Source: Deltaproteobacteria bacterium TL4 (lineage in GTDB: Bacteria > SAR324 > NAC60-12). Taken from it: DNA of 38,179 nt. The notes beneath the pieces were generated by a model. That model made no database searches. It was not told the DNA's origin and saw nothing but the letters and a program-made list of their open reading frames with translations. The first letter of the stretch is position 1; each line of letters starts with the position of its first letter. This document shows, in pieces, positions 745-24,598 of this stretch. A program made the position numbers and the translations under genes. The stretch spans positions 1-38,179 of the forward strand of contig JBBCAX010000184.1 of the NCBI GenBank assembly GCA_051382335.1. Direction: 5' to 3'.

Positions 745-3700
745 ATGGATGTTTTTCACTTTAGAGATAAGTTAGTCCAAGATTATGCGGATTATATCAA
801 AAGTTTTATTGTCATAAAGGACAACCGTATTAATCATCACGTTGATAAAGCATTGGAAGAAGGAGCTTTGTGGCCTCAGCCCTTGATTCAACTCAATCCT
901 GCATTTTCCAAAGGTGAAAGCATTGACGCCTTAGTAGCGAAGGGCATCCTCCATCCTCAGTGTAAGTATATTTTTCAAAGAGACAAAGAGGTTCAAGGAG
1001 TTGGAAAACCTTTGATTCTGCACAAACACCAAGCCGATGCCATTAGAATTGCCCAAAAACATGTCAATTATGTTCTGACAACAGGGACAGGTTCAGGAAA
1101 AAGTATGACCTACATTGTTCCGATTGTTGATCATATCCTTAAAAACGGTTCTGGAAAGGGAATTCAAGCGATTATTGTTTATCCAATGAACGCTTTAGCA
1201 AATAGCCAGCATGGAGAATTGGCAAAATTTATTCAAGCCGATCCTGACTCGGAAAAATCCCTGATTACATTTAAGCGATATACTGGACAAGAAACTGAGC
1301 AACAAAAAAGGGGTATTCAAAACTCCCCTCCAGATATACTGCTGACAAACTATGTCATGCTTGAATTAATCTTAACGAGACCTGAAGAAGATCGGCTAAT
1401 TGATTCTGCAATGAACATGAGATTTCTGGTTCTTGATGAGCTGCACACCTATCGGGGGCGACAGGGAGCCGATGTTGCTATTCTGGTAAGACGATTAAAA
1501 AATAGAACGAATGCCAATATTCAATGTGTTGGAACTTCTGCGACATTGGCCAGTTCCGGCACATTTAAAGAACAGTGCGAGGAAGTCTCGAAAATTGCCT
1601 CTCAATTATTTGGAGGAAAAGTTGAGTGGGAGCATGTGATTGGGGAAACATTAACCAGAACCACTAAAAATTTTGATAAAGATGATCGTGAGTTTATAGA
1701 TAAACTGAAACGAGAGATCAACAACCCAAGCTACCCTACACCGCTTACCAGCAATTATTTTCTGAACACAGCTTTATCATCGTGGATTGAAAGCACTTTT
1801 GGAACTCGCTTTGATGGGCGTGACCAGAGATGGGTTCGCTGTATTCCACAAAGTATTTCTGGAGAAAACGGCGCCGCAGTTCAGCTCCATGAAATAACCA
1901 ACATCGATCGAAACAAGTGTGAAAAAGCAATGGAACAGCATTTGTTAGCCGCATATCTTTGTGAATTTCCCGAGGGTACCCGACATCCATTCGCATTTAG
2001 GCTTCATCAATTTATTAGCAAAGGAGATACTGTTTATGCTTCTATAGAAGCTGAAGAAGAAAGGTATATTACCCTATTAGGACAAAAATATGTTCCAGGG
2101 AAACGAGACACCCATGTTTTGCTACCATTAGTTTTTTGTAGAGAGTGCGGACAAGAATACTATAATGTCCGAGTTCATACAGATCTGCGTACTGGTATAA
2201 AAACATTTTTCCCCAGAGAACTCAATGATCAGGATAATAATGAAATTGGAGATGCAGGCTTTCTTTATATCAGCAAGGAAAATCCATGGCCCAGTAATGA
2301 GAATGAAATATTAACGAGGGTTCCTGATGATTGGTTGGAATGGCATAGGGGAAAACAAAGAATTCGTAAAAATTATCTCAAATATTGTCCACAGCCAATT
2401 TTAGTTAAAACAAACGGATGCAGTGGTGATGAAGGAATCCTCAGCCATATAATTGCAGTACCGTTTCAATTTTGCTTATCCTGTGGAACTACTTACGGAA
2501 TACGGCAGAAATCAGACTATTCTAAACTAAGCTCATTAGGCGCTGGAGGGCGCAGTTCATCAACCACCATACTGAGTTTGTCATCTATCCAACACCTCAG
2601 AGAATCAGGGCTGAAATCAGAGGCGCAAAAACTACTGAGCTTCACGGATAATCGCCAGGATGCCTCTCTTCAGGCAGGACATTTTAACGACTTTATTGAA
2701 ATTAGTATCTTGCGTTCTGGTTTGTATAACGCTGTTCAAAATGCGGGACCGAGTGGGATTAAATATTATGACCTTCCTCATGAAGTATTTAAGGCTCTAT
2801 CTCTTCCCTTTGAACTCTATAGTGAAACTCCAAATCCTAATCGCATTGTCAGGAGCAACATCAATACAGCCCTCAGAGAAGTGATTGGCTATCGTTTGTA
2901 TCGTGATTTAAGAAGAGGCTGGCGAATCATATCTCCAAATTTGGAGCAATGCGGATTATTGCGAATTGAGTATGAATCGCTGAAAGAAACATGTGAGGAT
3001 GACTCTGTATGGAAGAATCTTCATCCTGCACTGGTTACGGCATCCAGCGATACTAAATACAGAATTTGCCTAACTTTGCTGGATTTTTTAAGAAGAGAAC
3101 TGGCCATCGATGTCGAGTCTCTCGACTTGGATCATCAAGAAAAACTCAAACGTCAAAGCGAACAATTAATTCCTCCGTGGTCACTGGATGAGAATGAAAG
3201 GATGTATCATTCGTCCATAGTATACCCTAGATCGAAAGGAAAAAAAGAAACTCAGGACAATGTGTTTCTCTCTCCAATGGGAGGGTTTGGACAATTCCTT
3301 AAACGCAATAGCACTTTGCTCGAATGGCAGGGAGAGCCGCTCAAGCAGCAAGACATTGAAATTATTATTAAGGAGATACTTGCAGCGCTTTCAAACGAAG
3401 GTCTTCTCAAGGAAGTCGAGACACCCAAGAATTCAGATGAGGTTCCCGGTTATCAAATATCAGCTTCCATCTTAATTTGGAAAGCTGGTGACGGAAGTAT
3501 CTCCTATCATGATCCAATCAGAATTCCTAATGCACCAGAAACGGGAGGTAGAACAAATCCCTATTTTATTAATTTGTATAAAAATATTGCAAATAAATTT
3601 AAGAATTTGGAAGCGAGAGAACATACCGCTCAAGTTAAGAACGAGCAAAGACGCATCCGTGAAGACCGTTTTAAAGATGGTGATTTGCCAATACTGTATT

Positions 3701-5913
3701 GCTCGCCAACAATGGAACTTGGGGTAGATATATCTGATCTGAATGCGGTCAATATGCGAAATGTACCTCCAAGCCCAGCCAACTATGCGCAAAGAAGCGG
3801 ACGTGCAGGACGGAGTGGTCAGCCTGCGTTAGTGTTTACTTATTGTGCTGCTGGTAACTCTCATGATCAGTATTTTTTCAAGAAACCCCAAAGAATGGTT
3901 GCTGGACAAGTCCTGCCGCCCCGACTCGATCTTACCAATGAAGATTTAATCCGATCGCATATTCAGGCCATTTGGTTAGCAGAAACAGGCATTAGTCTAA
4001 AAACATCATTAAAAGAATTATTGGATTTATCCGATATCCAAAATGCGTTTCCTGTTTTTCCTGAAATTGCTGCACACTTTCAGCAGAAAGGATATCAGGA
4101 AAGAGCAAAGTCCAGAGCAAAGGAGGTATTACAAAGTTTAGGTTCAGATTTAGACACTGCCAGTTGGTATGATGAGGAATGGCTTGATCAGGTGTTTACA
4201 CAAATATTTCGCAGGTTTGATGATGCTTGTAGCCGTTGGAGAAACTTATATCAAGCGGCTTTAAATCAACAGCATTCGCAAAATAAAATTGTCCTTGATC
4301 CAACAAGAAGTTTTGAGGATAAACAAAGGGCAGAAAGACTCAGAAACGAAGCTGAAGCACAGTTAAAGCTCTTAACAGATTCCCAAAATGTCATTCAATC
4401 TGATTTCTATAGTTATCGTTATTTCGCGAGTGAAGGTTTTTTACCAGGTTATAACTTCCCCAGATTACCGCTTTCCGCCTTTATTCCAGGAAGAAAACGG
4501 AATCGTAAAAATGATGAGTATCTGTCTCGCCCAAGATTTCTCGCGATTTCTGAGTTTGGTCCAAGAGCAATTGTTTATCATGAGGGATCTCAATACATCA
4601 TTGATAAAGCGATCCTCCCTGCTGGAGATGAAGGCCTAACAACTCGTAGGATAAAATTATGTGAAACTTGTGGTTATGTCCATTACCTAATTCAAAATGA
4701 GGCAATAGACCGTTGTGTGCGTTGTCACGCGCTCTTGGGAAATGCGATGAGCAATTTGTTTCATTTACAGAATGTTTCAACTCGCAGAAGGGAGAGAATC
4801 ACTTGCGATGAAGAAGAACGAATGCGGATGGGATATGAAATTATCTCAGGATTTTCGTTTAATCAAGCTGGCAATGTGTCCACTCGATCTGCGCAAATAC
4901 TGTCAAAAGAGCAAAAAGAATTGGTCAGCCTAACCTATAATCAATCAGCAACCTTGTGTAGAATCAACGTTGGTTGGCGGCGAAGAAAACAAAAAGAGAA
5001 CAAAGGGTATATCCTTGATTTGGAGCGTGGAACCTGGGCAAGAAAAGATAAAATAGAAGAAGGTGAAGACGCTCTCTCAAATCGGACAATGAAAGTAATT
5101 CCTTATGTTGAAGATCGACGAAACTGTATGTTGCTTGAATTTTCAGAACCCTGGGAATTAGAGCAAATTGCGACAATCCAATATGCGCTTAAAAACGCAA
5201 TCCTGTTCCTGTACCAGTTAGAGGACAATGAACTTGCGACGGAACCACTACCTGATCGGGAAAATAGAAATCTCATTCTCTTTTACGAATCATCTGAAGG
5301 AGGGGCCGGGGTTCTCAGAAGAATCGTAGAAGAACCCAATGCGTTTGCGGAAATAGCGAAAGAAGCCCTGGAATTATGTCATTTTGATCCAGAGACAGGA
5401 GCGGATCGCCATCGTTCTGAAAAGGCCAAAGAAGATTGTGAATCCGCATGTTATGACTGCCTGATGAGTTACAGCAATCAGTTTGATCATGGGTTGCTGG
5501 ACCGTTATTTGATCCGTGATTTTTTATTGGAACTTACTTCCTCTACAACGGTTTCCTCCTCCACTGAACTTCCTCGTGGACAACAGTTAGATTTTCTTAT
5601 GAAGCAGACAGAGTCCTCACTGGAAAAAAAGTGGCTGAAATTTCTTGAAGATCAGGGCTGCACTCTTCCAACCCATGCGCAATATGAGGTAGCCACTTGT
5701 CAAACCAAGCCAGACTTCTATTATCAAAATCATCACACTGCCATCTATGTGGATGGCCCTCCTCATGATTATCCTGATCGTCAGAAACGGGATGCTGAAC
5801 AAGATGATTGCATGTTGGATTATGGATTCATCGTCATTCGCTTTCACCATGAAGATAACTGGAGTGAAATTATCAAAAAATATCCCTCCATATTTGGAAA
5901 TCAGGGAAATTGA
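745..5913 (+). CDS. Large SF2 DEAD/DEAH (YprA/DrmA-like) helicase with DUF1998 (MrfA-type Zn-binding) domain and C-terminal DUF559/Vsr-like endonuclease domain
   Basis: 1722 aa. Q motif LHKHQ, Walker A TGTGSGKS, YPMNALANSQ, DELH, TSAT, TMELGVDI, QRSGRAGR; CxxC pairs (CREC, CLSC, CETC, CVRC); DUF1998-like C..CESACYDCL; terminal ESSLEKK..PDF..IYVDG..H..RD..G..VIRF. Confidence 0.9.
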   Translation: MDVFHFRDKLVQDYADYIKSFIVIKDNRINHHVDKALEEGALWPQPLIQLNPAFSKGESIDALVAKGILHPQCKYIFQRDKEVQGVGKPLILHKHQADAIRIAQKHVNYVLTTGTGSGKSMTYIVPIVDHILKNGSGKGIQAIIVYPMNALANSQHGELAKFIQADPDSEKSLITFKRYTGQETEQQKRGIQNSPPDILLTNYVMLELILTRPEEDRLIDSAMNMRFLVLDELHTYRGRQGADVAILVRRLKNRTNANIQCVGTSATLASSGTFKEQCEEVSKIASQLFGGKVEWEHVIGETLTRTTKNFDKDDREFIDKLKREINNPSYPTPLTSNYFLNTALSSWIESTFGTRFDGRDQRWVRCIPQSISGENGAAVQLHEITNIDRNKCEKAMEQHLLAAYLCEFPEGTRHPFAFRLHQFISKGDTVYASIEAEEERYITLLGQKYVPGKRDTHVLLPLVFCRECGQEYYNVRVHTDLRTGIKTFFPRELNDQDNNEIGDAGFLYISKENPWPSNENEILTRVPDDWLEWHRGKQRIRKNYLKYCPQPILVKTNGCSGDEGILSHIIAVPFQFCLSCGTTYGIRQKSDYSKLSSLGAGGRSSSTTILSLSSIQHLRESGLKSEAQKLLSFTDNRQDASLQAGHFNDFIEISILRSGLYNAVQNAGPSGIKYYDLPHEVFKALSLPFELYSETPNPNRIVRSNINTALREVIGYRLYRDLRRGWRIISPNLEQCGLLRIEYESLKETCEDDSVWKNLHPALVTASSDTKYRICLTLLDFLRRELAIDVESLDLDHQEKLKRQSEQLIPPWSLDENERMYHSSIVYPRSKGKKETQDNVFLSPMGGFGQFLKRNSTLLEWQGEPLKQQDIEIIIKEILAALSNEGLLKEVETPKNSDEVPGYQISASILIWKAGDGSISYHDPIRIPNAPETGGRTNPYFINLYKNIANKFKNLEAREHTAQVKNEQRRIREDRFKDGDLPILYCSPTMELGVDISDLNAVNMRNVPPSPANYAQRSGRAGRSGQPALVFTYCAAGNSHDQYFFKKPQRMVAGQVLPPRLDLTNEDLIRSHIQAIWLAETGISLKTSLKELLDLSDIQNAFPVFPEIAAHFQQKGYQERAKSRAKEVLQSLGSDLDTASWYDEEWLDQVFTQIFRRFDDACSRWRNLYQAALNQQHSQNKIVLDPTRSFEDKQRAERLRNEAEAQLKLLTDSQNVIQSDFYSYRYFASEGFLPGYNFPRLPLSAFIPGRKRNRKNDEYLSRPRFLAISEFGPRAIVYHEGSQYIIDKAILPAGDEGLTTRRIKLCETCGYVHYLIQNEAIDRCVRCHALLGNAMSNLFHLQNVSTRRRERITCDEEERMRMGYEIISGFSFNQAGNVSTRSAQILSKEQKELVSLTYNQSATLCRINVGWRRRKQKENKGYILDLERGTWARKDKIEEGEDALSNRTMKVIPYVEDRRNCMLLEFSEPWELEQIATIQYALKNAILFLYQLEDNELATEPLPDRENRNLILFYESSEGGAGVLRRIVEEPNAFAEIAKEALELCHFDPETGADRHRSEKAKEDCESACYDCLMSYSNQFDHGLLDRYLIRDFLLELTSSTTVSSSTELPRGQQLDFLMKQTESSLEKKWLKFLEDQGCTLPTHAQYEVATCQTKPDFYYQNHHTAIYVDGPPHDYPDRQKRDAEQDDCMLDYGFIVIRFHHEDNWSEIIKKYPSIFGNQGN

Positions 5914-5930
5914 GCAAACAGGGATAAATT

Positions 5931-8783
5931 ATGGAATATGCAATTGGATCGTTAGTCAAGGTCCGTGGACGAGAATGGGTTATCCTCGAAAAGAATCCTC
6001 CTTGGCTAAAGTTGAGACCGCTCGGAGGTGGTGACGAAGAAACCACAGCCATCCACACGAATTTGGAAACGATTCAGTCGGCTCAGTTTGCTCCTCCTAA
6101 TCCTGATGCCTCAGGGGATTATACTTCTTGTCGTTTGTTACGGGATGCCGTGCGCTTGGGCTTTCGTTCCAGTGCTGGTCCCTTTCGTGCGATTGCCAGC
6201 ATAGCGGTTCAGCCACGGTCATACCAACTGGTTCCATTGTTAATGGCACTTAAACAGGATCCTGTCCGTTTACTGATTGCGGATGATGTCGGCATAGGAA
6301 AAACCATTGAGGCCTGTTTGATTGCCAAAGAATTATTGGAAAGGGGTGAGGTAAAAAGGCTGGCTGTGCTCTGTCCTCCTCATTTGGCGGAACAATGGCA
6401 TACAGAATTAAAAGAAAAATTCCATATTGACGCGGCTTTGGTTTTGCGCGGCACCGCCACTAAATTGGAAAGAAACTTGCGGCTAGGGGAGTCCTTGTTT
6501 GACAGACATCCGTTCGTGATTGTGTCCATGGATTTTATCAAATCAGACCGCAGAAGGGATGATTTTTTAAGAACCTGCCCTGAGTTGGTGATTGTTGATG
6601 AAGCGCATACCTGTTCCTGGGGAGGTGAAGGAAAAAGGCATCAACGTCATCAGTTAGTTTCTGAGCTAAGTCAGGATGTAACTCGTCATATGCTTTTGGT
6701 AACTGCAACCCCTCATAGCGGTAAGGAAGATGCTTTTCATTCACTACTGGGTTTATTAAACTCACGGTTTGTCAACTTTCCTACTGATCTCGCCGGTGCT
6801 GAAAATCAAACTTATCGCAGAGAAATTGCCAATCATTTTGTCCAGAGAAGACGAGGAGACATTCGCAGCTATATTGGTGAAGATACCCCTTTTCCTGACA
6901 GGGAGAGCACTGAGGTGACGTACTCCCTCAATCCAGACTATAAAAATTTTTTTGCGCAGGTCTTTCGTTATGCAAGAGAAACTGTCTTGGAAGAAAAATC
7001 AGGAACCTATCAGTTCAGAATTCGCTGGTGGTCAGTGCTGGCACTTCTTAGAGCTTTAGCCTCAAGTCCTGCGGCTGCGGCTTCAACACTAAGGAACCGT
7101 GCGTCCACTCTTGACCAGGAATCTGGTGAAAGTATTGAGGAGTTAGGACGCCGCAACGTGATGGACTTAACCGATGATGACTCTGTTGAGGGCAGCGATG
7201 TCGCTCCAGGCAGTGACATTGGCGAGCTGTTTAAAGATGCCGAAGCTCACAAGAGAAAACTGCGTGCAATGGCCAAGACAGCGGATTCCTTATTGGGAAA
7301 CAGTGATGAAAAACTGAATAAATCCGCAGACATTATAAGTTCACTGCTTAAAGATGGCTTTCGACCTATCGTCTTTTGCCGTTTTATTCCTACAGTGGAC
7401 TATTTGGTTGAGATGTTTCGTAACCATAATAGTTTGAATAAAAAATTTAAAGGAGTGGAAATCATCGGCGTCACCGGGCAATTTCCGCCTTTAGAACGGA
7501 AAGAACTGATTCAGAAATTAGCACAATACGAAAAGCGTCTGCTCATCTGTACAGATTGCCTGAGTGAAGGAATCAACCTGCAGGAGCATTTTGACGCGGT
7601 AGTTCATTATGACCTTTCCTGGAATCCAGCCCGGCATGAACAACGAGAAGGACGAGTTGATCGTTTTGGGCAGCCACGCAAGGTTGTCAAAGTGGTGACC
7701 TATTATGGAACAGACAATCAAATCGATGGCATTGTCTTGGATGTTCTCTTACGCAAGCACAAAAACATTAAAAGTTCATTAGGGATTTCGGTTCCTGTCC
7801 CTGTCAACTCTGAAGCCTTAATGGAAGCCGTCTTTGAAGGCTTACTGCTGCGAGAAGAAACAGGAACCAGCTCTGAAATGCTGCTCCCGGGGTTTGAGGA
7901 ATATTTCAAACCCCAGCGGGAAGAATTGTTCAAGCAATGGGAATTCGCCAAAGAAAAAGAAAAACGCTCACAAACTATGTTTGCCCAACACGCCATTAAG
8001 CCTGAAGAAGTTGTTCCTGAAATTCAGGCGATCCGCATGGCTATTGGCTATGAAACCGATGTTTCTGGTTTTACCAGGAATGCGTTAACTGCTTTTCACG
8101 CGCTCATCTCTGGTCAAGATCACATCAAGGTGGATTTGTTTGAAACACCGCAGGAAATTAAAGATATGATCAACCAGCAAAAAGAATTCAAAGCCTGTTT
8201 TACAATGCCCGCAGAAGAAGGGGAACTCTACTTGAACCGGACGCATCCAATAGTTGAGGCATTGGCCAGTCATGTGCTCAACTCGACATTAGACTATTCA
8301 GCACAGAGCATTGCCAGGCGCTGTGGAGTGATTCGCACGAACTCCGTGGAAAAGCGAACAACTTTGCTGTTGACTCGTTTTCGCTATCAATTAATTACCC
8401 GAAAAGAAGAGGAACAGCATTCTTTACTTTCAGAAGAGTGTTTATTGCTCGCCTTTGAAGGGGCTCCAGATAAGGCTGTTTGGTTGGATGAAGACCAAGC
8501 TGAAGCTCTCCTGAACTCAACTCCTGATGCGAATGTATTATCGCAACAAGCTCTTGAACAATTGCAAAAAATCATCATTGAGGAAAATGGAGTCTACAGG
8601 ATCCATCAATCATTGTTAGGCCATTTAAATGATGTTGCTCTGAACAAAGGCAAACAACTCCTGGAAAGCCACAAGAAGGTGCGTCAGGCGAGTGGACACA
8701 AAGGAATCCGTCAAACAATTGAGCCGCAACTGCCGCCGGATATTCTTGGGGTGTATATTTATTTACCAATTCCTAAAGTTTAA
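5931..8783 (+). CDS. SNF2-family helicase/ATPase (DrmD/RapA-like)
   Basis: 950 aa. PRSYQL, LIADDVGIGKT, DEAH, LVTATP, SEGINLQ, WNPARHEQREGRVDRFGQ. Confidence 0.92.
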   Translation: MEYAIGSLVKVRGREWVILEKNPPWLKLRPLGGGDEETTAIHTNLETIQSAQFAPPNPDASGDYTSCRLLRDAVRLGFRSSAGPFRAIASIAVQPRSYQLVPLLMALKQDPVRLLIADDVGIGKTIEACLIAKELLERGEVKRLAVLCPPHLAEQWHTELKEKFHIDAALVLRGTATKLERNLRLGESLFDRHPFVIVSMDFIKSDRRRDDFLRTCPELVIVDEAHTCSWGGEGKRHQRHQLVSELSQDVTRHMLLVTATPHSGKEDAFHSLLGLLNSRFVNFPTDLAGAENQTYRREIANHFVQRRRGDIRSYIGEDTPFPDRESTEVTYSLNPDYKNFFAQVFRYARETVLEEKSGTYQFRIRWWSVLALLRALASSPAAAASTLRNRASTLDQESGESIEELGRRNVMDLTDDDSVEGSDVAPGSDIGELFKDAEAHKRKLRAMAKTADSLLGNSDEKLNKSADIISSLLKDGFRPIVFCRFIPTVDYLVEMFRNHNSLNKKFKGVEIIGVTGQFPPLERKELIQKLAQYEKRLLICTDCLSEGINLQEHFDAVVHYDLSWNPARHEQREGRVDRFGQPRKVVKVVTYYGTDNQIDGIVLDVLLRKHKNIKSSLGISVPVPVNSEALMEAVFEGLLLREETGTSSEMLLPGFEEYFKPQREELFKQWEFAKEKEKRSQTMFAQHAIKPEEVVPEIQAIRMAIGYETDVSGFTRNALTAFHALISGQDHIKVDLFETPQEIKDMINQQKEFKACFTMPAEEGELYLNRTHPIVEALASHVLNSTLDYSAQSIARRCGVIRTNSVEKRTTLLLTRFRYQLITRKEEEQHSLLSEECLLLAFEGAPDKAVWLDEDQAEALLNSTPDANVLSQQALEQLQKIIIEENGVYRIHQSLLGHLNDVALNKGKQLLESHKKVRQASGHKGIRQTIEPQLPPDILGVYIYLPIPKV

Positions 8784-8808
8784 TCCTTTATAGCTGGTCA
8801 GGAAAAGT

Positions 8809-11800
8809 ATGCAAACCAAACATCAAGCCGCGTTTATCACGATACGGACCGAAGGCGCCATTTTGCCTCCCGACCTGCTTCAAAGGGTGGCTGATGGTGA
8901 TGCCAGCTTAGACGGTATGACTTCGGATTCATATCACCTTGCCTCTGGAATCAAACTCAATGAAGCCATTAACCGTTCCTGGACCTGGATGCTCGGACGT
9001 TGGCAATCTTTTAAGGAATCAAAAGCCAAACTGCCTGAAGGGGATCGAGGAACCACGGTAACCAGAGAGCGCTTGCTGCTCCCCTTATTTCAGGAATTGG
9101 GCTACGGGAGATTAACGGTATCAAAAGCCTTTGAAATCGAAGGAAAAACCTATCCAATTTCGCACCTCTGGCAAAATAATCCGATTCATCTCATCGGTTA
9201 TGGCGTAGACATTGATAAAATGAACAAGGGCGTTGCGGGTTCAGCAAAAATTAATCCTCATGGAATGGTTCAGGAATTTTTGAATCGCTCAGAAGCTCAC
9301 CTTTGGGCCTTTGTCTCTAATGGCAAAACCCTGCGCATCCTCAGAGATAATCTGCGTTTAACCCGTCAAGCCTATGTTGAGTTTGATCTGGAAAGCATGT
9401 TTGAGGGCGAGATTTACGCAGACTTTGTTTTGCTCTGGCTCCTCTGTCACCAATCACGTGTGGAAGCGGAAAAACCTGAGGAATGCTGGCTGGAAAAATG
9501 GTCAAAGGTTGCGCAAGACCAAGGAACACGAGCTTTGGATCACTTAAGAGAAGGGGTCGAATCTGCTATTCGTTCATTGGGAAGCGGTTTTCTCAAACAT
9601 CCGGCCAATGGCGAGTTAAGGGAAAAGCTGAGATCCGGCACCTTGAACAAACAGGATTACTACCGCCAGTTGCTCCGCATGGTCTATCGCCTGATTTTGT
9701 TGTTTGTAGCGGAGGATCGAGAACTGTTGTTTGATCCCCACTCAGCCGCTGAAGCTCGCAAAGCGTACCTGGAACATTATTCTTTAACTCGTCTCCGTAC
9801 CATGGCTGGACGGATCAGGGGCGGACGGCATCATGATTTATATCAAATGCTGAAACTCATCACGCAAAAACTCGGAGGAGATCATGGCTGTCCTGAGTTG
9901 GGCTTACCTGCTTTGAATGGTTTCCTTTTTTCCGCTGAAGCGCTACCTGATCTGGAACTTGCTGAACTTGCCAATGCGGATTTGCTGGAGGCCATTCGCT
10001 GCTTGTCAACCATCAACGATGGGGTTGCTTTACGTTCTGTGGATTATCGGAACTTAGGCGCGGAAGAACTTGGAAGCATTTACGAATCGCTTTTGGAACT
10101 GCATCCTGACTTAAATCTGGATGCCGGAACTTTTGAACTCAAAACCGCCGGAGGCAATGAACGCAAAACCACCGGAAGTTATTATACCCCATCCAGTCTG
10201 ATCCAATGTTTGTTGGATTCTGCCTTAGAGCCTGTGCTAGTCGAAGCACTGAAGCAACCAAATCCTGAAGACGCACTTCTCAGCCTCAAGGTTTGCGATC
10301 CGGCTTGCGGCAGCGGACATTTCCTCATCGCGGCGGCGCATCGTATTGCCCGCAAACTGGCCATAGTGAGAACTGGCGATGATGAACCGGCTCCGCCTGA
10401 AATTCGACATGCGCTGCGTGATGTCATCAGCCATTGTATTTATGGTGTGGATATCAATCCCATGTCGGTCGAACTTTGCAAGGTCAGTCTCTGGATGGAA
10501 GCCCTGGAGCCAGGGAAACCCCTCTCTTTTTTAGATCACAAAATTCAATGCGGAAACAGCTTGCTGGGTGTAACTCCACGATTGCTTAAAAATGGGATTC
10601 CTGATGATGCGTTCCACCCCATTGAAGGCGATGATAGGGCAGTTTGCTCAGGTTATAAAAAGGAAAACTCAATTGAAAAAAAGCAGAGAAGCTTTCTGAT
10701 GTCTACAGCAGATTTTCAATTGGATTTAGGTAATTTAGCAACCACTTTGATGAAACTGGAATCTATTGAAGGAAACTCTGTCGATGAAATTCGCAAAAAG
10801 CACCAACTGTATCATGAGTATATTGATTCCAGTGATTATCGCTTTGGTCACCTGCTTGCTGATGCCTGGTGTGCTGCTTTTGTCTGGGAAAAGACAGAAG
10901 ACAATCCCAACCCGCCCATTACTGAAGATATATTTCGTAGAATCGAAAAGAATCCCTGGGATCTTCATCTTGGAACAAAAAACGAAATCGAACGTCTGTC
11001 CCAACTATACCAGTTTTTTCATTGGCAATTGACTTTTCCCGATATTTTCCGGATTCCCTTCAAAGATGAAAAACCCGACAATGAGCAAACGGGATGGTGT
11101 GGAGGATTTGATGTCGTCCTGGGGAATCCGCCGTGGGAACGGATCAAACTCCAGGAAAAGGAATGGTTTGCTGAAAGAAATACGGATATCGCCAACGCCC
11201 CTAATGCTTCCAGGCGCAGGAAAATGATTGATTCCCTGAGTGAAACTGATCCAACTTTGTATCAGGCATTTTTGGAAGACTGCAGAAAAGCGGAAGGGGA
11301 AAGTCATTTCATTCGTGACTCGAACACCTATCCTCTCTGCGGTAGAGGTGATGTCAATACCTACACCATCTTTGCGGAAATGAATCGCAACCTGCTTTCT
11401 CCGATGGGACGGTTTGGATGTATCGTTCCTTCCGGAATTGCCACGGATGACACCACCAAGTTTTTCTTTCAGGATCTGATGGAAAAACATTCGCTCAGTA
11501 GTTTGTATGATTTTGAAAATCGAGAGAAGTTATTTCCCGATGTTGATAGTCGTATGAAGTTCTGTCTCCTCACTCTGACAGGCTTGAAACGTCCAGCAAC
11601 TCAGGGAGCGGACTTTGTTTTCTTTGCTCAGAAGGTGGAAGACCTGCATGAAGACAACAGGCATTTTTCCTTGACTGCTGAAGAGATTGCTCTGCTCAAT
11701 CCCAATACCCGAACCTGTCCCATCTTCCGCAGTAAACGGGACGCGGAACTCACGAAAGGTATCTATCGGAGGGTTCCAGTGCTCATCAAGGAGACGTATA

Positions 11801-12846
11801 ATTCAAAGGGGCAGGTGACACACACTGAAAATCCTTGGGGAGTGAAATTTTCAACTATGTTCCATATGACCAATGACTCTGGCTTGTTCCGTACAAAGGA
11901 ACAACTAGAAAGTGATGGTTGGATTTTGAAAGGGAATGTATTTGAGAAAAGAGAGCATAAATATTTGCCGTTGTATGAAGGAAGGATGATACACCACTTT
12001 GACCACCGAGTGGCATCGATGGGGACAAATGAATGTAATACCTTTCGTAGTGGTGTGACTTTGGAGACATCTAGCGAAAATCATATGGATTCTGAATATG
12101 CTGTGATGCCAAGATATTGGGTATTTCATGGTGATGTATACCAAAAACTTCATCAAGAATTTAATCAGAATGCGCTTATAGTCTTCAAAGATGTCACAAG
12201 TTCAACTAATGAGAGAACATTCATTGGTGGTATAATTCCCTTTAGCGCTATCGGAAATACACTACCAATTATGTTAGTTCCAAAGACCAATTATTCTATG
12301 AGTGCTTTGTTAATTAGCAATCTAACAGCTTTTTCCTTTGATTCTATTGCAAAGTTTAAAATCGGTGGGAATCATACGAATTTTTTCCTCATTAATCAAT
12401 TACCTGTCATAATGTATTCTGTTTATAGCCAGAACACTCTTTGGAGCCATCCCTCACAATTATCCCAATGGATAAGTAGCAGAGCAATCGAACTTATTTT
12501 CACGGCTTGGGATTTAGAACCTTTTGCCAAAGATTGCGGCTACACTTACCCACCCTTCAAATGGAACGAAGAGCGTCGTCACTTAATCCGGTGTGAACTG
12601 GATGCCGCCTATTTCCATTTGTACAGCATTGAGCGGGATGATGTGGATTACATCATGGGAACCTTTCCGATTGTGAAGCGCAAGGATGAGCAAAAATATG
12701 GGGAGTATCGTACCAAAGCCATCATTCTGCACTGCTATGACAAAATGGCAGAAGCCATCAAAACCGGAGAGCCTTATCAAACGATTCTGGATCCGCCTCC
12801 TGCTGATCCAAGTTTGTGTCATCCTCCAAGAGAGGAGGTCAGATGA
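8809..12846 (+). CDS. Type IIG/Eco57I-like N6-adenine DNA methyltransferase (DrmMI-like) with C-terminal target recognition region
   Basis: 1345 aa. Motif X GSYYTP, motif I DPACGSGHFL, YGVDINP, motif IV GNPPW in gamma-class order; N-terminal WAFVSNGK segment resembles IIG/HsdR-N-type domains. Confidence 0.92.
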   Translation: MQTKHQAAFITIRTEGAILPPDLLQRVADGDASLDGMTSDSYHLASGIKLNEAINRSWTWMLGRWQSFKESKAKLPEGDRGTTVTRERLLLPLFQELGYGRLTVSKAFEIEGKTYPISHLWQNNPIHLIGYGVDIDKMNKGVAGSAKINPHGMVQEFLNRSEAHLWAFVSNGKTLRILRDNLRLTRQAYVEFDLESMFEGEIYADFVLLWLLCHQSRVEAEKPEECWLEKWSKVAQDQGTRALDHLREGVESAIRSLGSGFLKHPANGELREKLRSGTLNKQDYYRQLLRMVYRLILLFVAEDRELLFDPHSAAEARKAYLEHYSLTRLRTMAGRIRGGRHHDLYQMLKLITQKLGGDHGCPELGLPALNGFLFSAEALPDLELAELANADLLEAIRCLSTINDGVALRSVDYRNLGAEELGSIYESLLELHPDLNLDAGTFELKTAGGNERKTTGSYYTPSSLIQCLLDSALEPVLVEALKQPNPEDALLSLKVCDPACGSGHFLIAAAHRIARKLAIVRTGDDEPAPPEIRHALRDVISHCIYGVDINPMSVELCKVSLWMEALEPGKPLSFLDHKIQCGNSLLGVTPRLLKNGIPDDAFHPIEGDDRAVCSGYKKENSIEKKQRSFLMSTADFQLDLGNLATTLMKLESIEGNSVDEIRKKHQLYHEYIDSSDYRFGHLLADAWCAAFVWEKTEDNPNPPITEDIFRRIEKNPWDLHLGTKNEIERLSQLYQFFHWQLTFPDIFRIPFKDEKPDNEQTGWCGGFDVVLGNPPWERIKLQEKEWFAERNTDIANAPNASRRRKMIDSLSETDPTLYQAFLEDCRKAEGESHFIRDSNTYPLCGRGDVNTYTIFAEMNRNLLSPMGRFGCIVPSGIATDDTTKFFFQDLMEKHSLSSLYDFENREKLFPDVDSRMKFCLLTLTGLKRPATQGADFVFFAQKVEDLHEDNRHFSLTAEEIALLNPNTRTCPIFRSKRDAELTKGIYRRVPVLIKETYNSKGQVTHTENPWGVKFSTMFHMTNDSGLFRTKEQLESDGWILKGNVFEKREHKYLPLYEGRMIHHFDHRVASMGTNECNTFRSGVTLETSSENHMDSEYAVMPRYWVFHGDVYQKLHQEFNQNALIVFKDVTSSTNERTFIGGIIPFSAIGNTLPIMLVPKTNYSMSALLISNLTAFSFDSIAKFKIGGNHTNFFLINQLPVIMYSVYSQNTLWSHPSQLSQWISSRAIELIFTAWDLEPFAKDCGYTYPPFKWNEERRHLIRCELDAAYFHLYSIERDDVDYIMGTFPIVKRKDEQKYGEYRTKAIILHCYDKMAEAIKTGEPYQTILDPPPADPSLCHPPREEVR

Positions 12847-13130
12847 TTATCAAAGAGTTAAAATTCAGCGGGCATGCGATACAGAGAATGTTTGAAAGAA
12901 AAATCACCAAAGACTCTGTTAAAAAGGTGATTATCTCAGGTGAGATTATTAAAGATTATCCGAATGACCAACCCTATCCCAGTATGTTGTTATTGGGATT
13001 TGAAGAAGATCGTCCGCTGCATGTGGTGCTGGGTATTGACCCGCATGACCAAACAGGATACGTTGTTACCGTGTATGAACCTGATTCAAAACTTTGGAGT
13101 ACTAACTTTAAAACAAGGAGAAAGCCATGA
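12843..13130 (+). CDS. DUF4258 family protein (putative RelE-like toxin)
   Basis: FSGHAIQRMFER..GEIIKDYP.D.PYPS.L.LG..PLHVV..VVTVYEPD..W pattern; ATG at 12843 after GAGGAGG, overlapping the methyltransferase stop (ATGA). Confidence 0.85.
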   Translation: MIIKELKFSGHAIQRMFERKITKDSVKKVIISGEIIKDYPNDQPYPSMLLLGFEEDRPLHVVLGIDPHDQTGYVVTVYEPDSKLWSTNFKTRRKP

Positions 13131-13351
13131 AATGTATGATTTGCAAACAGGGAAACACCGTGCAGGGAGTCACTGTGGTGACTTTGACAAGGGCTGAATC
13201 CATTGTGTTACTCAAGAATGTCCCGGCTGATATTTGTGAAAACTGCGGTGAATATTACCTTTCAGAAGACATTACTGAACAAGTGCTGTTAAAAGGAGAA
13301 AGTGCCTTGAAAAAAGGTGTTGAAATTGAAGTTCTGAGTTATGTCGCCTGA
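13127..13351 (+). CDS. YgiT/MqsA-type zinc-finger protein (putative antitoxin)
   Basis: MKCMIC...NVPADICENCGEYY; 74 aa, no HTH; ATGA overlap with the DUF4258 gene. Confidence 0.85.
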   Translation: MKCMICKQGNTVQGVTVVTLTRAESIVLLKNVPADICENCGEYYLSEDITEQVLLKGESALKKGVEIEVLSYVA

Positions 13352-13428
13352 GTGATGAAGGTCTATGGAAAAAGAAGTGAAAGTCTGGCAAATAGGAGTC
13401 AAACCCCTTTCAGTGTATCTTCATCAGC

Positions 13429-14658
13429 ATGTGGCTTGATCTCCGAACAGATAAAGGCAATATGGCATCTCTTCAATTACCTCACCCTTGTTCAGCAAAA
13501 GATTTAATTCAATCCTTGATTGAAAATGACATGATCACAGGAGAGTGGGAGAAACTGGTAATCCAGATCCCATCCCCTTGTTTTATCACGACAGGAGCCT
13601 TGGCATTTCTTTGTTCATGGGGATTGCTGCAGCGTAATCAGAATAAGACATTCACCGCCGTTGGTGATCCAAATTCCCTTCGTTATTGCTCCCGCATTGA
13701 CCTGTTGAAGCATTTGAACATTCCCTTTGAAGAGACCTTTGAGCGGCATGAGGAGAGAGGCCGTTTTATCCCGCTTAAACTCATTGAAACGCAAGAAGAC
13801 GTTTGTCGCGTCGTGAATCAAATATGTGAATTGGTCATTTCCCAATTTGAAAATGGACGCACTTTTTTACCAGCAATGGAATGGGCTGTGAACGAGGTGA
13901 TTGACAACATCAGCATTCACTCCCAATCAAAAACTCCGGGGGCTGTGTGTGCCCAGTATTTCACGGAACGGCAAAGACTGGATATTGGTATTTGTGATAT
14001 GGGCATTGGCATTAAGGCATCTCTCAGTGAGTCTCCTCATGTTCAGCCTTGGGACAGCCATGGAAGTGCTATTTCAAAAGCACTGTGTAGAGGCATAACT
14101 CGCAATAAAGCAGTGGGACAAGGCAATGGACTTGCGGGAACGAGAGAAATCACGGTAGCCAATGGAGGGAATTTTGATCTATGGACTGGAAATGCTTTGA
14201 ATCGTATTCAACTGGGGAAAGACAAAGGGTTTTCAGTCTTTGCTCAAGAAATTCAAGGGACCGGAATTCAGTTGCAGATGTTCACCAATCGCCCGGTGAA
14301 CCTGAAGGACACGTTTATTGAAGACAGTGGTGTAAATTATCTGGAAAACATAGCATGGAAAATCGAAGAAGGTGGGCTGAAAATCAAGGAAGAATGTATA
14401 CACACTGGAGGACGAGAACCAGCAAAACGATTACGATTAAAAATTCTCAATCTATTACCAGACATGGAAGAAGTGTTACGCTTGGATTTTACCGGCATTG
14501 AAAGCACATCCAGCAGTTTTCTTGATGAATTACTGAGTCGTTTGATCATGGAAATTGGTCATAAGGTGTTTCTGAAAAAAATTCAAATCATCCATGCGTC
14601 TCAACCAATCATTGACATGGCCAATGTGGTCATCCATCAACGTGTTGAAGATCATTAA
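13429..14658 (+). CDS. STAS-like + GHKL (HATPase) + DUF4325/STAS-like protein
   Basis: N-box EVIDNISIH, G1 DMGIGI, G2 GQGNGL, GT; C-terminal LDFTGIESTSSSFLDELL STAS-type motif. Confidence 0.75.
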   Translation: MWLDLRTDKGNMASLQLPHPCSAKDLIQSLIENDMITGEWEKLVIQIPSPCFITTGALAFLCSWGLLQRNQNKTFTAVGDPNSLRYCSRIDLLKHLNIPFEETFERHEERGRFIPLKLIETQEDVCRVVNQICELVISQFENGRTFLPAMEWAVNEVIDNISIHSQSKTPGAVCAQYFTERQRLDIGICDMGIGIKASLSESPHVQPWDSHGSAISKALCRGITRNKAVGQGNGLAGTREITVANGGNFDLWTGNALNRIQLGKDKGFSVFAQEIQGTGIQLQMFTNRPVNLKDTFIEDSGVNYLENIAWKIEEGGLKIKEECIHTGGREPAKRLRLKILNLLPDMEEVLRLDFTGIESTSSSFLDELLSRLIMEIGHKVFLKKIQIIHASQPIIDMANVVIHQRVEDH

Positions 14659-14661
14659 ACG

Positions 14662-14816
14662 TAGGTCGTCCAAAACATGCCTTTTTGATGTGATTTTTTT
14701 GCCCACTTTTTGGCCCTCTGAAAAATTGGAGGAAACCCACAGAAAATAAGGGGCCGTGAGACATTCTTGCAGGTCCATTTTTTGAGCAAGCTATTTTGGT
14801 CAATTTAGACGACCTA
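14662..14816. mobile_element. MITE (155 bp, non-autonomous)
   Basis: Terminal IRs TAGGTCGTCCAAA / TTTAGACGACCTA (12/13 match), flanked by a perfect direct repeat CATTAAACG at 14653-14661 and 14817-14825. Confidence 0.85.
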
Positions 14817-15012: not shown

Positions 15013-15731
15013 CATAGGTGTTCGTGGTTTTAAATCATAATAAATTCAATTGGCTTCTTGTTGAAAAGATGACATTCTGGATATTTTGCTAACACAACCC
15101 CAGGAGGCCTGGTATGAACAAAGAAGAGAGTCATCTCAAACAAATCAAGCAAGAGATTGCCGCAATTATCCCGGCCAAAGATGGACGAAGTCCAGGTTCT
15201 AACTAAAAAAAATTGGTGATCAACTCCTATGTTGTCGGGCCATCGGATTTTGGCATCCTACTGAATATCAGTACCATTGGTATCTTACCAATTTGACAGC
15301 TCTTGCGAAAATTATGTATCCACTCTACCGTTTGAGATGGCAAATTGAATTGATTTTTAAAGGGATACAGCAATCACTTAAGGCCAACCGACTCACCTCT
15401 AACAATTCCAACATCATTGAATCTTTATTGCTCGCTTCTATGGCTGCTCAGCTCATTTCCATGGTTATTTTAAGAGTGGGTTCGGCGAAGCTAAACAAAG
15501 AGCAACAATTGGCCTTCTCCTTTCAACGAATCTCAAAAATTGCTGTTGTACTGGCAAATGATTTTGTGAACTTTTTTTTACAGTCCACTAAACGAGCTTT
15601 TGACGAGCTTGTTGAAAAAATCAGGCTCTTTGCAAAAGAACTGTTTGATCCAAACTATCATCATCGGGAAACTTCACTGATGCGCATAAATAGAGAACTC
15701 GCTGGAGGAACATAAATCCCGAACACCTATG
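15013..15731 (+). mobile_element. Internally deleted IS4-family element
   Basis: Perfect 12-bp terminal IRs CATAGGTGTTCG (15013-15024) / CGAACACCTATG (15720-15731), 16/18 when extended; 719 bp total; encloses transposase fragments. Confidence 0.85.
15114..15715 (+). pseudogene. IS4-family transposase remnant
   Basis: GGAGG + ATG at 15114 giving a short N-terminal stub, then C-terminal part WYLTNL..YRLRWQIELIFK (YREK motif); most of the DDE core is missing. Confidence 0.85.
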
Positions 15732-16109: not shown

Positions 16110-16496
16110 CTATTTAATTTCAACACCTGCGCCAGCTTCTTCAAGCTTCTTTTTGATTTCTTCAGCTTCCGCTCTGGGGATGCCTTCTTTTACCGCTTTA
16201 GGTGCCGCCTCAACGAAATCTTTCGCTTCTTTTAAACCCAAACCCGTGATTGCGCGAACTTCTTTAATCACATTGATTTTCTTCTCTCCAATTGTCGCGA
16301 GAATGACGTCAAATTCGGTTTGTTCCACAGCAGCTTCAGACTCTCCACCGCCTCCGGCAGCAGGAGCAACAGCGACGGTAGCCGCAGCAGCACTAACACC
16401 AAATTTTGCTTCGAGTTCTTTTACCATTTCAGAGAGTTCGAGTACTGACATGCTTGAGATAAACTCAATCACTTGCTCTTTTGTGATCTCAGCCAT
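16110..16496 (-). CDS. rplL: 50S ribosomal protein L7/L12
   Basis: [33 protein letters not shown]. Confidence 0.99.
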
Positions 16497-22417: not shown

Positions 22418-24598
22418 ATGCCTCAGCTTAGACTTTTTTATTTTTTGAAAAGAATTGGTGTTTTTTGGGGGCTTGTGGGAAGTCTGATTATTGGTTGTGA
22501 TTTTTCACATTCCGCTAAACAGCAAACGACAAATTCAGCCTTACAGACACCTGTTATTTCTGGCTCTGCCTATAAGGATTTTTCCACCAAATCGATCGCT
22601 CTGTCCTGGACTGGAGATTTTGTCGATTCAGCAGGCAACCTTCATCAAATCACTGCCACTCAGTGGCAAACTCATTTTTCCGAAGGAAATCAATGGTATG
22701 TTGACGCTTCAATCATTTTGAGTTTTGAGGAGGAACAGACCGCATTGATTACCCAAAATAGTGATCCGTGGCAAAAGTATAACAGGGTCGAGCTGACCGT
22801 TCGTGGAAATACCCTATTTTATTGTTTGAGTGTTGAGGACCAGGAAACACCGCCGTTTTCTTTAGAATTTTCGATTCCTGTCGATGCCCGCAATCCTGCT
22901 GTTTCGGGTTGTGGCAATGAGAATCGACCGTGGATAGCCTTACGCCCTGTCTCACTGGAAATCAAAGGGAACTATCTTGGCACCAGTCAAACACCACACT
23001 CCATCACGCACCTCCTATGGCAGCAGGGTCGTTTAAAATATCACTTGCTCCGTTTCAATAACGCGCAAAACTATGCGATTGCCCAGAATGCTGTGGAAAA
23101 TTCTGTATTTCCCGGAAAATTCAGTCGTTTTGACTGGATGTATTTTGAGGCGCAGTTGTATGTCTGCCACACGATTCAAAATGCCGATACGCTCCTTCAG
23201 GCGGACGACTATCAAAAAGCGGAATCTTCAGACCCCAAAGCCCATGGCTGTCAAGGTCAGGCTTGGGAACGCTTAAACGAATATACCGCTTTCGTTGGTA
23301 ATTACATGGATGCGGCAGGGACACTTTATGCCTTGACCGCAACGCAATGGAACTTTAGCGGATTTGTTTACACGGAAAAGAATGACGCTACCACCCCTCA
23401 AATTAATGAACAAACCGTCATCGCAATCAACCTGATACAATCCTACCTCATTACCCAAGACGCTGACGGTCGTGCTTTTCAGCGCTATGATTGGGCTGAT
23501 TTTCAAGGTGTCCGGTACTTATGTCAGAGGGGTGTGTCTCAAAAAACTCAAGCTATCGCGGAATCGTTATCTCCTCCTGAGCCAAGTGCACCGAACCAGT
23601 CAGGATGTGATGATCATGCCTGGATTTCGTTCTTTGCAATACCCCTCCCTGTTTTTGATCAGTATGTGGATGAGTTCGGATTGACTCACTCCATTTCCTC
23701 TTTGTCGTGGCAGATTGCCGCGCTTAGGTACCATCTGATTCAACTTAATACGAAGGAGCACTATGCTATTGCGTTCAATGATCTCAGTCATCCTGTTTAT
23801 CCAGGAAGCTTCAGTCGCTTAGATTGGACAACCTACGAAAGTCAAAAATACTTTTGTCATACCACGGCCAATGCCTTGAATACTAAAAAAATAGAAGAGG
23901 TTTTAGCGCCTGATACTTCAAATCCTGAATATCAGGGATGCGGAAATCAACCTTGGCGATTGCTAAAACCGCCTCTTTGGGCATTGGACTTTTCCTTGGA
24001 AGAGAAAGTGTTTGCCAATAGAGTTATCCGTTTTGCCCCAATTTCTGGGACACTCCCCAAAAATGCGCTCCAAAATCCCCAGGTTGTTTTGGGTTCTCTG
24101 GAAAATAAAACAAAGGGGGTTGCGTTAGGTTACGACAAAACGGCGAGCTTGACAACAGGTGGCAGTTTGACGGTTGGCATGGGAACCGAAAATCAGAATT
24201 ACTGCATTTCGGATGGTTTGGGCGATGATCTGATTGTTTATTCCCATTTTGAGGCGCCTGAAGCGGTTCCTGGAAAACAGGAGGTTGGTGAAGTCGCTTA
24301 TCTCGAGGTTTCTGAAGATGGAAAGCAATTTTATCGTTTTCCTTTTCAGTTATATCCCGCTATGGAGAAAGGAGAGAAAGGACACTATGAGGGACTGATA
24401 GGGATAGAGCCAGAGGGCGATTGGTTTGACCTAAGGCGAATAATCGAGGAATATGCTCTTTTAGACCAATTTCGAGCTTGTTCTATTCACCTCATTGATA
24501 CAGGAACTCAAATTGAAGATATCTCAACGGACGGGATGTATGGGGACAGTGTTCAAATCAAAGCAATTCAAGCCTTACACTTTGAAGAAATGAAATAA
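22418..24598 (+). CDS. Putative lipoprotein with four tandem Cys-pair repeats and a C-terminal beta-rich domain
   Basis: Lipobox-like LIIGC (Cys27); four ~105-120 aa repeats each ending YxC...P...GC...W. Confidence 0.75.
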   Translation: MPQLRLFYFLKRIGVFWGLVGSLIIGCDFSHSAKQQTTNSALQTPVISGSAYKDFSTKSIALSWTGDFVDSAGNLHQITATQWQTHFSEGNQWYVDASIILSFEEEQTALITQNSDPWQKYNRVELTVRGNTLFYCLSVEDQETPPFSLEFSIPVDARNPAVSGCGNENRPWIALRPVSLEIKGNYLGTSQTPHSITHLLWQQGRLKYHLLRFNNAQNYAIAQNAVENSVFPGKFSRFDWMYFEAQLYVCHTIQNADTLLQADDYQKAESSDPKAHGCQGQAWERLNEYTAFVGNYMDAAGTLYALTATQWNFSGFVYTEKNDATTPQINEQTVIAINLIQSYLITQDADGRAFQRYDWADFQGVRYLCQRGVSQKTQAIAESLSPPEPSAPNQSGCDDHAWISFFAIPLPVFDQYVDEFGLTHSISSLSWQIAALRYHLIQLNTKEHYAIAFNDLSHPVYPGSFSRLDWTTYESQKYFCHTTANALNTKKIEEVLAPDTSNPEYQGCGNQPWRLLKPPLWALDFSLEEKVFANRVIRFAPISGTLPKNALQNPQVVLGSLENKTKGVALGYDKTASLTTGGSLTVGMGTENQNYCISDGLGDDLIVYSHFEAPEAVPGKQEVGEVAYLEVSEDGKQFYRFPFQLYPAMEKGEKGHYEGLIGIEPEGDWFDLRRIIEEYALLDQFRACSIHLIDTGTQIEDISTDGMYGDSVQIKAIQALHFEEMK

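Follow-up and report, generated by a model that had tools for sequence, protein, structure and literature searches.

A type I ARMADA locus of Deltaproteobacteria bacterium TL4 with a putative, apparently undescribed CapK-type switch on a single chain

Closest described systems and the TL4 locus

In the accessible text of the preprint describing it, ARMADA type I is defined by a YprA helicase encoded first, which carries DUF1998 on its own chain and a Vsr nuclease at its C-terminus, and by a BrxHII-like SNF2 protein and then a PglX-like methylase encoded after it (Bell et al., bioRxiv 10.1101/2025.09.15.676423). The same order and domains, at 38-48% identity over nearly the full length of the proteins, are found on a 38,179-nucleotide contig of Deltaproteobacteria bacterium TL4 (JBBCAX010000184.1; the whole stretch analysed, hereafter the window). 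Six co-directional plus-strand open reading frames (ORFs), genes 1-6, occupy positions 745-14658 with gaps of 17, 25, -4, -4 and 77 bp. By homology, genes 1-3 are an ordinary ARMADA type I operon, armC-armA-armB, and as such an already known system. Downstream lie a DUF4258/YgiT toxin-antitoxin (TA) pair (genes 4 and 5) and a fused kinase-STAS gene (gene 6), neither of which is mentioned in the accessible part of that preprint. The locus is accordingly presented here as an ARMADA type I variant to which a putative CapK-type switch on one chain, apparently undescribed so far, has been added.

ARMADA type II, from O-island 172 of E. coli, comprises the same three protein types at about 26% identity, in pieces, to those of the window; its order is armA-armB-armC-armD with a required GajB-like ArmD, whereas the window is helicase-first, lacks ArmD and has no UvrD among genes 4-6. 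Class I DISARM resembles the window in combining an SNF2 protein, an adenine methylase and a YprA-family helicase, but has split DrmA and DrmB and the phospholipase D (PLD) protein DrmC, whereas the window has one fused chain and no HKD motif. Druantia III is distinguished by a DruE with PLD domains and by DruH, while the window has neither an HKD motif nor a DruH-sized partner gene; the PADLOC models of DruE match gene 1 in pieces.

For gene 6, the nearest described proteins are CapK and VapK, both of them kinases of the STAS-GHKL type. Single-stranded DNA (ssDNA) activates CapK, which acts on the repressor CapS by phosphorylating a serine of its STAS domain; the toxin VapC is held by VapS, and both kinds of system occur in defence islands, often after restriction-modification genes (Chambers et al., PMC13373217, accessible text). 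Gene 6 shares with them a STAS-GHKL kinase with a predicted catalytic asparagine and a predicted STAS substrate with a conserved serine. CapK and CapS are, however, encoded by separate genes, with a winged helix-turn-helix (wHTH) CapS upstream of the immune operon and a helix-turn-helix (HTH) on CapK, whereas gene 6 is one chain that ends at the STAS domain and has neither HTH nor wHTH. In VapKSC the PIN toxin VapC is adjacent, whereas the toxin neighbouring gene 6 is a DUF4258 protein with its own antitoxin and no PIN domain. Gene 6 is also linked to YprA-helicase systems, unlike CapK-CapS and VapKSC as described, and the main text of PMC13373217, as far as accessible, mentions no ARMADA, helicases or natural fusions. 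SpoIIAB/RsbW with SpoIIAA/RsbV have the kinase fold and the position of the STAS serine in common with gene 6, which differs in being one chain, in having a further STAS domain at its N-terminus and in its defence context. No description of the fused kinase-STAS form or of its YprA-helicase link was found in the literature searched, in which subscription titles were thinly covered.

The best explanation of the whole locus, to which a probability of roughly 0.62 is given, is that the type I core defends the cell, that gene 6 is an optional and mobile self-phosphorylating ssDNA switch, and that the TA pair is cargo. Gene 6 connects two themes of 2025-26 that were not found together in the literature searched, namely YprA-helicase defence and ssDNA-activated STAS kinases.

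The ARMADA type I core

The core was compared with four plasmid loci whose helicases are labelled ‘ARMADA Type I helicase’ in Table S1 of the preprint (bioRxiv 10.1101/2025.09.15.676423, as accessible), with the DISARM genes of one type I plasmid record, and with ARMADA II and Druantia III from EDL933; a plasmid tblastn search with gene 1 returned 73 records, 65 of which covered at least 80% of the query. Gene 1 (armC; 745..5913, 1722 aa) is 41.9-44.5% identical to the four labelled type I ArmC proteins across residues 1-1718, as against 25.6% in pieces to ArmC II and 25.7% in pieces to DruE of Druantia III, with no match to DrmA or DrmB. Gene 2 (armA; 5931..8783, 950 aa) shows 43.0-47.6% identity to type I ArmA over its full length and 26% over part of type II ArmA, and gene 3 (armB; 8809..12846, 1345 aa) shows 38.2-42.9% identity to type I ArmB and about 26% to the type II protein. 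In FastTree trees of ArmC and ArmA the window is nested among the type I references. The ArmC tree, a narrower form of the helicase tree suggested in the initial annotation, has type II as its outgroup and does not include DruE and DrmA. Three ORFs of 950-1722 aa, all with full-length homologues, are far more than chance would give.

Domain scans bear out the initial reading of the genes. ArmC combines a YprA-family superfamily 2 helicase, zinc modules and DUF1998 (MZB) with a Vsr-type PD-(D/E)xK nuclease at its C-terminus, and Pfam recovers DEAD, Helicase_C and MZB/DUF1998 together with a weak DUF559 match, below cut-off, on the single chain; the fused OB-CON-DUF1998 helicase of type I is thus present. 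ArmA is a BrxHII/RapA-like SNF2 ATPase (GIGKT at 121, DEAH at 223) and ArmB a PglX/Eco57I-like N6-adenine methyltransferase (GSGHF at 501, NPPW at 773), so that the type I order of YprA helicase, BrxHII-like SNF2 protein and PglX-like methylase is found in the window. Among 51 aligned ArmC homologues, K119, D231/E232, the CxxC motifs at 465/577/1306/1324 and C1565/C1569/C1572 are invariant, and so are P1656-D1657, D1670-G1671 and H1674 of the Vsr region; the C-terminal Vsr nuclease belonging to the type I definition is accordingly predicted to be active. As to the BrxA-like, zinc beta-barrel, MarR-like and coiled-coil inserts of type I, ArmC was read by sequence alone, its CxxC motifs being invariant and its chain collinear with the labelled members.

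The initial annotation had described the cluster as a DISARM-related but non-canonical defence operon, with a hedge that it might be ARMADA-like. The defence reading and the hedge hold, given the identity, order, domains and trees, and the reported absence of a PLD gene is confirmed by a motif scan that found no HKD motif in genes 1, 2, 3 and 6. The label ‘non-canonical’ falls away, as a fused helicase-DUF1998 chain, a C-terminal Vsr nuclease and a YprA-first order are defining traits of type I, with which the lack of PLD also fits. The claimed novelty of the core is likewise removed by the match to a described system: at least 8000 ArmC relatives exist, and the core itself adds nothing new. 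The spread of armC around TL4 is patchy, full-length copies being found in 2/41 genomes of its family and order (its own genome included), and a metagenome scan with ArmC yielded two loci only, neither extending beyond armB.

The anti-phage activity of ARMADA has been demonstrated for type II (bioRxiv 10.1101/2025.09.15.676423; PMC13463889; both as accessible), where protection is direct and non-abortive and requires Walker A/B and NPPW motifs (bioRxiv 10.1101/2025.09.15.676423). By analogy, the type I core likely stops phage as well. In the proposed mechanism, ArmB would methylate host DNA as a mark of self, and invader DNA that is unmarked or exposes ssDNA would be unwound and cut by ArmA, as SNF2 motor, and ArmC, as helicase-Vsr nuclease. 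We infer both the self mark and the activity of this type I copy from the type II results and from the intact motifs of the window.

Two points sit uneasily with this account of the core. The accessible text of the EDL933 paper expects recognition to be structural, not sequence-specific, and to be of unmodified DNA (PMC13463889). Furthermore, among the PADLOC models the one that gene 2 matches best is named for DpdE (827 bits). With the NCBIfam DpdE model gene 2 scores 180 against a cut-off of 500, and with the DrmD model 316 against a cut-off of 610. A Dpd system was rejected as an identity for the locus, the NCBIfam scores for DpdE and DpdJ being far under their cut-offs and no dpd genes being found among the window ORFs scanned. 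As a separate matter of annotation, the PADLOC DpdE model matches ArmA across its full length, and the PADLOC DrmA model PDLC02567 includes the kinase-STAS module of gene 6, because of which stand-alone copies of that module are mislabelled as DrmA (models noted: PDLC02567, PDLC02853).

Gene 6 and its association with DNA-targeting defence

Gene 6 (13462..14658, plus strand, 398 aa) is predicted to encode, on a single chain, a STAS domain, a GHKL (SpoIIAB/CapK-like) kinase and a second STAS domain (VapS/CapS-like, DUF4325). Domain scans recover the DUF4325 STAS domain and a weak HATPase, and AlphaFold2 models the protein confidently as one three-domain unit (pLDDT, the predicted local distance difference test, 93.7; pTM, the predicted template-modelling score, 0.92). 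In a VIA fold search covering residues 103-278, with the STAS domains outside it, the best fold for the middle domain is SpoIIAB (1l0o; Z 15.2, root-mean-square deviation 2.6, 136 residues aligned), and Foldseek with the model gives generic GHKL matches only. The family profile matches VapS (9z7o, E 1e-5), placing the phosphorylated S48 of VapS opposite S351, and does not match ArmC II. Across 49/49 family rows W141, E145, N149, H153, D179, G181, G183, G221, G223, F343, S352 and R394 are invariant and the residues of the N, G1 and G2 boxes are kept; S351 is present in 44/49, R172 in 37/49 and F41 in 33/49 (F or Y in 36/49). Motif alignment points to N149 (13906-13908) as the catalytic residue and to S352 (14515-14517), or S351, as the phospho-acceptor. 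A looser plasmid search gave no recognisable CapK usable for a computed comparison. The likeness to CapK was judged by eye: F41 corresponds to VapK F54 and S352 to CapS S54, a serine before a phenylalanine (appendix of PMC13373217, as accessible), and R170/R172 fall within the basic loop assigned to ssDNA (PMC13373217). By this match F41 and R172 stand where CapK/VapK make their ssDNA contacts.

On these grounds of sequence and modelled structure, gene 6 is a putative kinase together with its own predicted substrate, that is, a fused version of the CapK-CapS switch published in 2026. It likely self-phosphorylates the fused STAS serine on sensing ssDNA, by analogy with CapK, and it resembles a regulator more than an attack arm. 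A complex prediction of gene 6 with ArmC residues 1255-1722 and ATP/Mg (score 0.01, mark 0.32) was counted neither for nor against any reading. More broadly, we infer that gene 6 may serve DNA-targeting defence islands as a switch that senses damage and is both mobile and optional.

The genomic setting was surveyed in 28 loci. Gene 6 lies co-directionally after armB in eight of them (six picocyanobacterial kin, L034 and L017) and is convergent on an armB-like gene in two; four loci hold DrmA fusions just after drmMI, one of them with two genes between, and one holds a DruE-like fusion. In L058 and L017 the start of gene 6 is at most 5 bp from the armB stop. The neighbourhood survey proposed in the initial annotation gives a divided answer, as gene 6 recurs after armB in 8/28 loci and the TA pair recurs in none of those fetched; the name ‘accessory arms’ then used fits the two additions differently, the TA pair being a likely passenger and gene 6, which recurs with ARMADA, DISARM and Druantia helicases, being regulator-like. 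Among 35 longer homologues, 26 are fusions to DrmA, two to an MrfA-like YprA helicase and one each to PbeA, PprRE and an HNH protein, the remaining four carrying a tail of no assigned identity with a weak restriction/HsdS-like lead; one further homologue is fused C-terminally to a DruE-like helicase. As a side observation, in P0145, P0150, P0151, P0155 and P0174 the kinase-STAS module is fused to some 760 aa that carry no annotation and come nearest, among Atlas clusters, to restriction/HsdS-like ones (0.89-0.91).

A picocyanobacterial family of 301 genomes offers the densest sampling: 29 genomes have armC and eight an intact gene 6. Each of the eight intact copies shares contig and strand with armC and is found 6.9-11.2 kb downstream of it, while the intervening cargo changes; the two fragmentary copies belong to genomes that have no armC. 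Six of the eight are already counted among the 28 loci, and the genomes are kin; a Fisher test on this table (p=3e-9) was not used, the genomes being related and the armC query having been taken from one of them. In approximately unbiased (AU) tests, a single clade of the five ARMADA-linked rows was rejected (p=0.0055), as was one of the six DrmA fusions (p=0.0002), so that armB linkage and DrmA fusion each arose more than once; the tree had 32 rows, 22/54 having been dropped (near-duplicates, the five rows of the outgroup and a few that lacked labels), with a simple model and groups named post hoc. Gene 6 is otherwise rare, being found in 1/88 genomes of the window's phylum and in 1/401 and 6/401 of two other phyla, and a plasmid tblastn search with it returned three distant records, none of them among the armC records listed (40 of 73).

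These patterns have suggested a wider proposal, which is speculative and judged rather unlikely in its full form: that YprA-helicase systems took up a one-piece ssDNA sensor on several occasions (behind armB in ARMADA I, at the N-terminus of DISARM DrmA and at the C-terminus of a DruE-like helicase) and would be gated by it post-translationally through its self-phosphorylation. The ssDNA arising from infection, or from the helicase itself, would trigger self-phosphorylation and so switch the DNA-attacking machine. If true, this would place a phosphorylation checkpoint on a direct, non-abortive DNA defence and constitute a third output for the CapK switch. It bears on the question of how the helicase-nucleases of DISARM and ARMADA spare host repair intermediates, which the natural DrmA-kinase fusion makes testable with point mutants of N149 and S352.

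Several observations weigh against gene 6 being an ssDNA switch of such systems. Neither a wHTH nor a toxin partner accompanies it, which leaves it without the known outputs of CapS and VapS, and its fusions share no common partner domain. Within the 28 loci it lies beside type I restriction genes in three and PDC-M27 in one, and in nine the part in view shows no system that was recognised. ARMADA I can dispense with gene 6, given that 21/29 picocyanobacterial armC genomes lack it, and a full armC is absent from 9/15 gene-6 genomes checked and present in 6/15, five of the fifteen having been chosen for armB proximity. None of five distant acidobacterial copies (0/5) is near ARMADA; two are by Mrr-type nucleases and the rest among insertion sequence (IS) or housekeeping genes. 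The picocyanobacterial copies, moreover, lack F41 and R78, because of which ssDNA sensing may not be general across the family.

Much of the same evidence is claimed by the alternative that gene 6 is a self-contained defence or stress module hitchhiking in islands, its fusions being read-through into the next gene, with no effect on ARMADA. This is the strongest competitor, falling somewhat short of even odds. It would account for the very diverse fusion partners (DrmA, MrfA-like helicase, PbeA, PprRE, HNH, the HsdS-like lead), for copies standing alone in housekeeping or IS contexts, and for the poor overlap of gene-6 and armC genomes, nine of fifteen of the former lacking full armC and most of the latter lacking gene 6. 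It is hard to square with the constant placement of the eight intact picocyanobacterial copies past armC despite cargo turnover (though in kin genomes), with the confinement of both fragmentary copies to armC-less genomes, and with the repeated origin of armB linkage and DrmA fusion in the AU test. That two lineages couple it to the armB stop, and that fusions put STAS right before helicases or nucleases, or after a DruE-like helicase, could instead be taken to mean that an ARMADA I subtype has gene 6 as its dedicated regulatory subunit: the unphosphorylated STAS domain would restrain an Arm nuclease or motor, and ssDNA-triggered phosphorylation would free it, as in VapS-VapC. VapKSC provides a precedent (PMC13373217, accessible text), but the fusions share no partner domain and most type I loci manage without gene 6, and a dedicated subunit is considered improbable, at perhaps one chance in a handful.

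The TA pair consists of a 95-aa DUF4258 toxin of the RelE/BECR superfamily (gene 4, 12843..13130, plus strand; Pfam E 1.4e-24) and a 74-aa YgiT/MqsA-type zinc-finger antitoxin without HTH (gene 5, 13127..13351, plus strand; TIGR03831 E 1.8e-13), the latter covering only positions 1-67 of 131 in the Pfam MqsA model; both are likely passengers. DUF4258 is an uncharacterised RelE-superfamily family known as an MqsA fusion (PMC11980606, accessible text). As gene 4 lies close by and VapS regulates an RNase toxin (PMC13373217), gene 6 could be supposed to control this toxin, genes 4-6 then forming a VapKSC-like abortive arm behind ARMADA. That is very improbable: in the ORFs of the further ARMADA and gene-6 loci that were fetched, neither a DUF4258 nor a YgiT gene was found, the toxin comes with an antitoxin of its own, and another DUF4258/YgiT pair lies elsewhere in the genome, on contig C220. 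The most fitting reading of the pair is that of cargo which entered between armB and gene 6.

Other features were seen beside gene 6 homologues. In picocyanobacterial ARMADA loci a PsyrTA-like RecQ and DprA pair lies downstream of the homologue (L025 11110-14570; similar in L029 and L032), and degraded partial kinase-STAS duplicates stand beside an intact copy in L054 (12520-13245 and 15730-16302) and L055 (10655-11266).

Gene starts, boundaries and surroundings

The ORFs bear out the co-directional arrangement and gaps given in the initial annotation, with an adjustment at gene 6. Its longest form runs from 13429 to 14658 (409 aa), but the start is likely 13462, because the closest homologues align from this second methionine and a ribosome-binding-site-like AAAGG lies upstream of it; the preceding gap is then 110 bp. 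Promoter and terminator scans of the locus gave nothing above chance level. The GC content of the island (43.1%) equals that of the genome (43.4%).

The window is the entire contig, and its left end begins inside a repeat: positions 1-127 are common to several other contigs, mostly close to contig ends, and about 209-427 have an 82% copy on contig C33. Downstream of gene 6 the only co-directional features are a miniature inverted-repeat transposable element (MITE) and an IS remnant. The MITE (14662-14816, 155 bp, 3 bp past the gene 6 stop) has terminal inverted repeats and a 9-bp target duplication, has 18 matches in the genome (13 of them whole elements, 89-100% identical) and is outside the defence system. 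The remnant of an IS4-family transposase (15293-15715, plus strand) marks the right edge of the island, beyond which a convergent rplL operon follows.

The rplL gene (16110-16496) has no rpoB next to it, rpoB being on contig C129. The idea that the island separated the two was ruled out, as rpoB is absent within 1.5 kb of rplL in 11/11 loci of relatives, which indicates a lineage-wide split of the usual operon. Further along, a 726-aa ORF at 22418-24598 has no Pfam match at E 1e-5. Elsewhere in the TL4 genome (G000), contigs C158 (L004) and C347 carry further methylase, SNF2 and helicase genes, possibly representing more defence loci.

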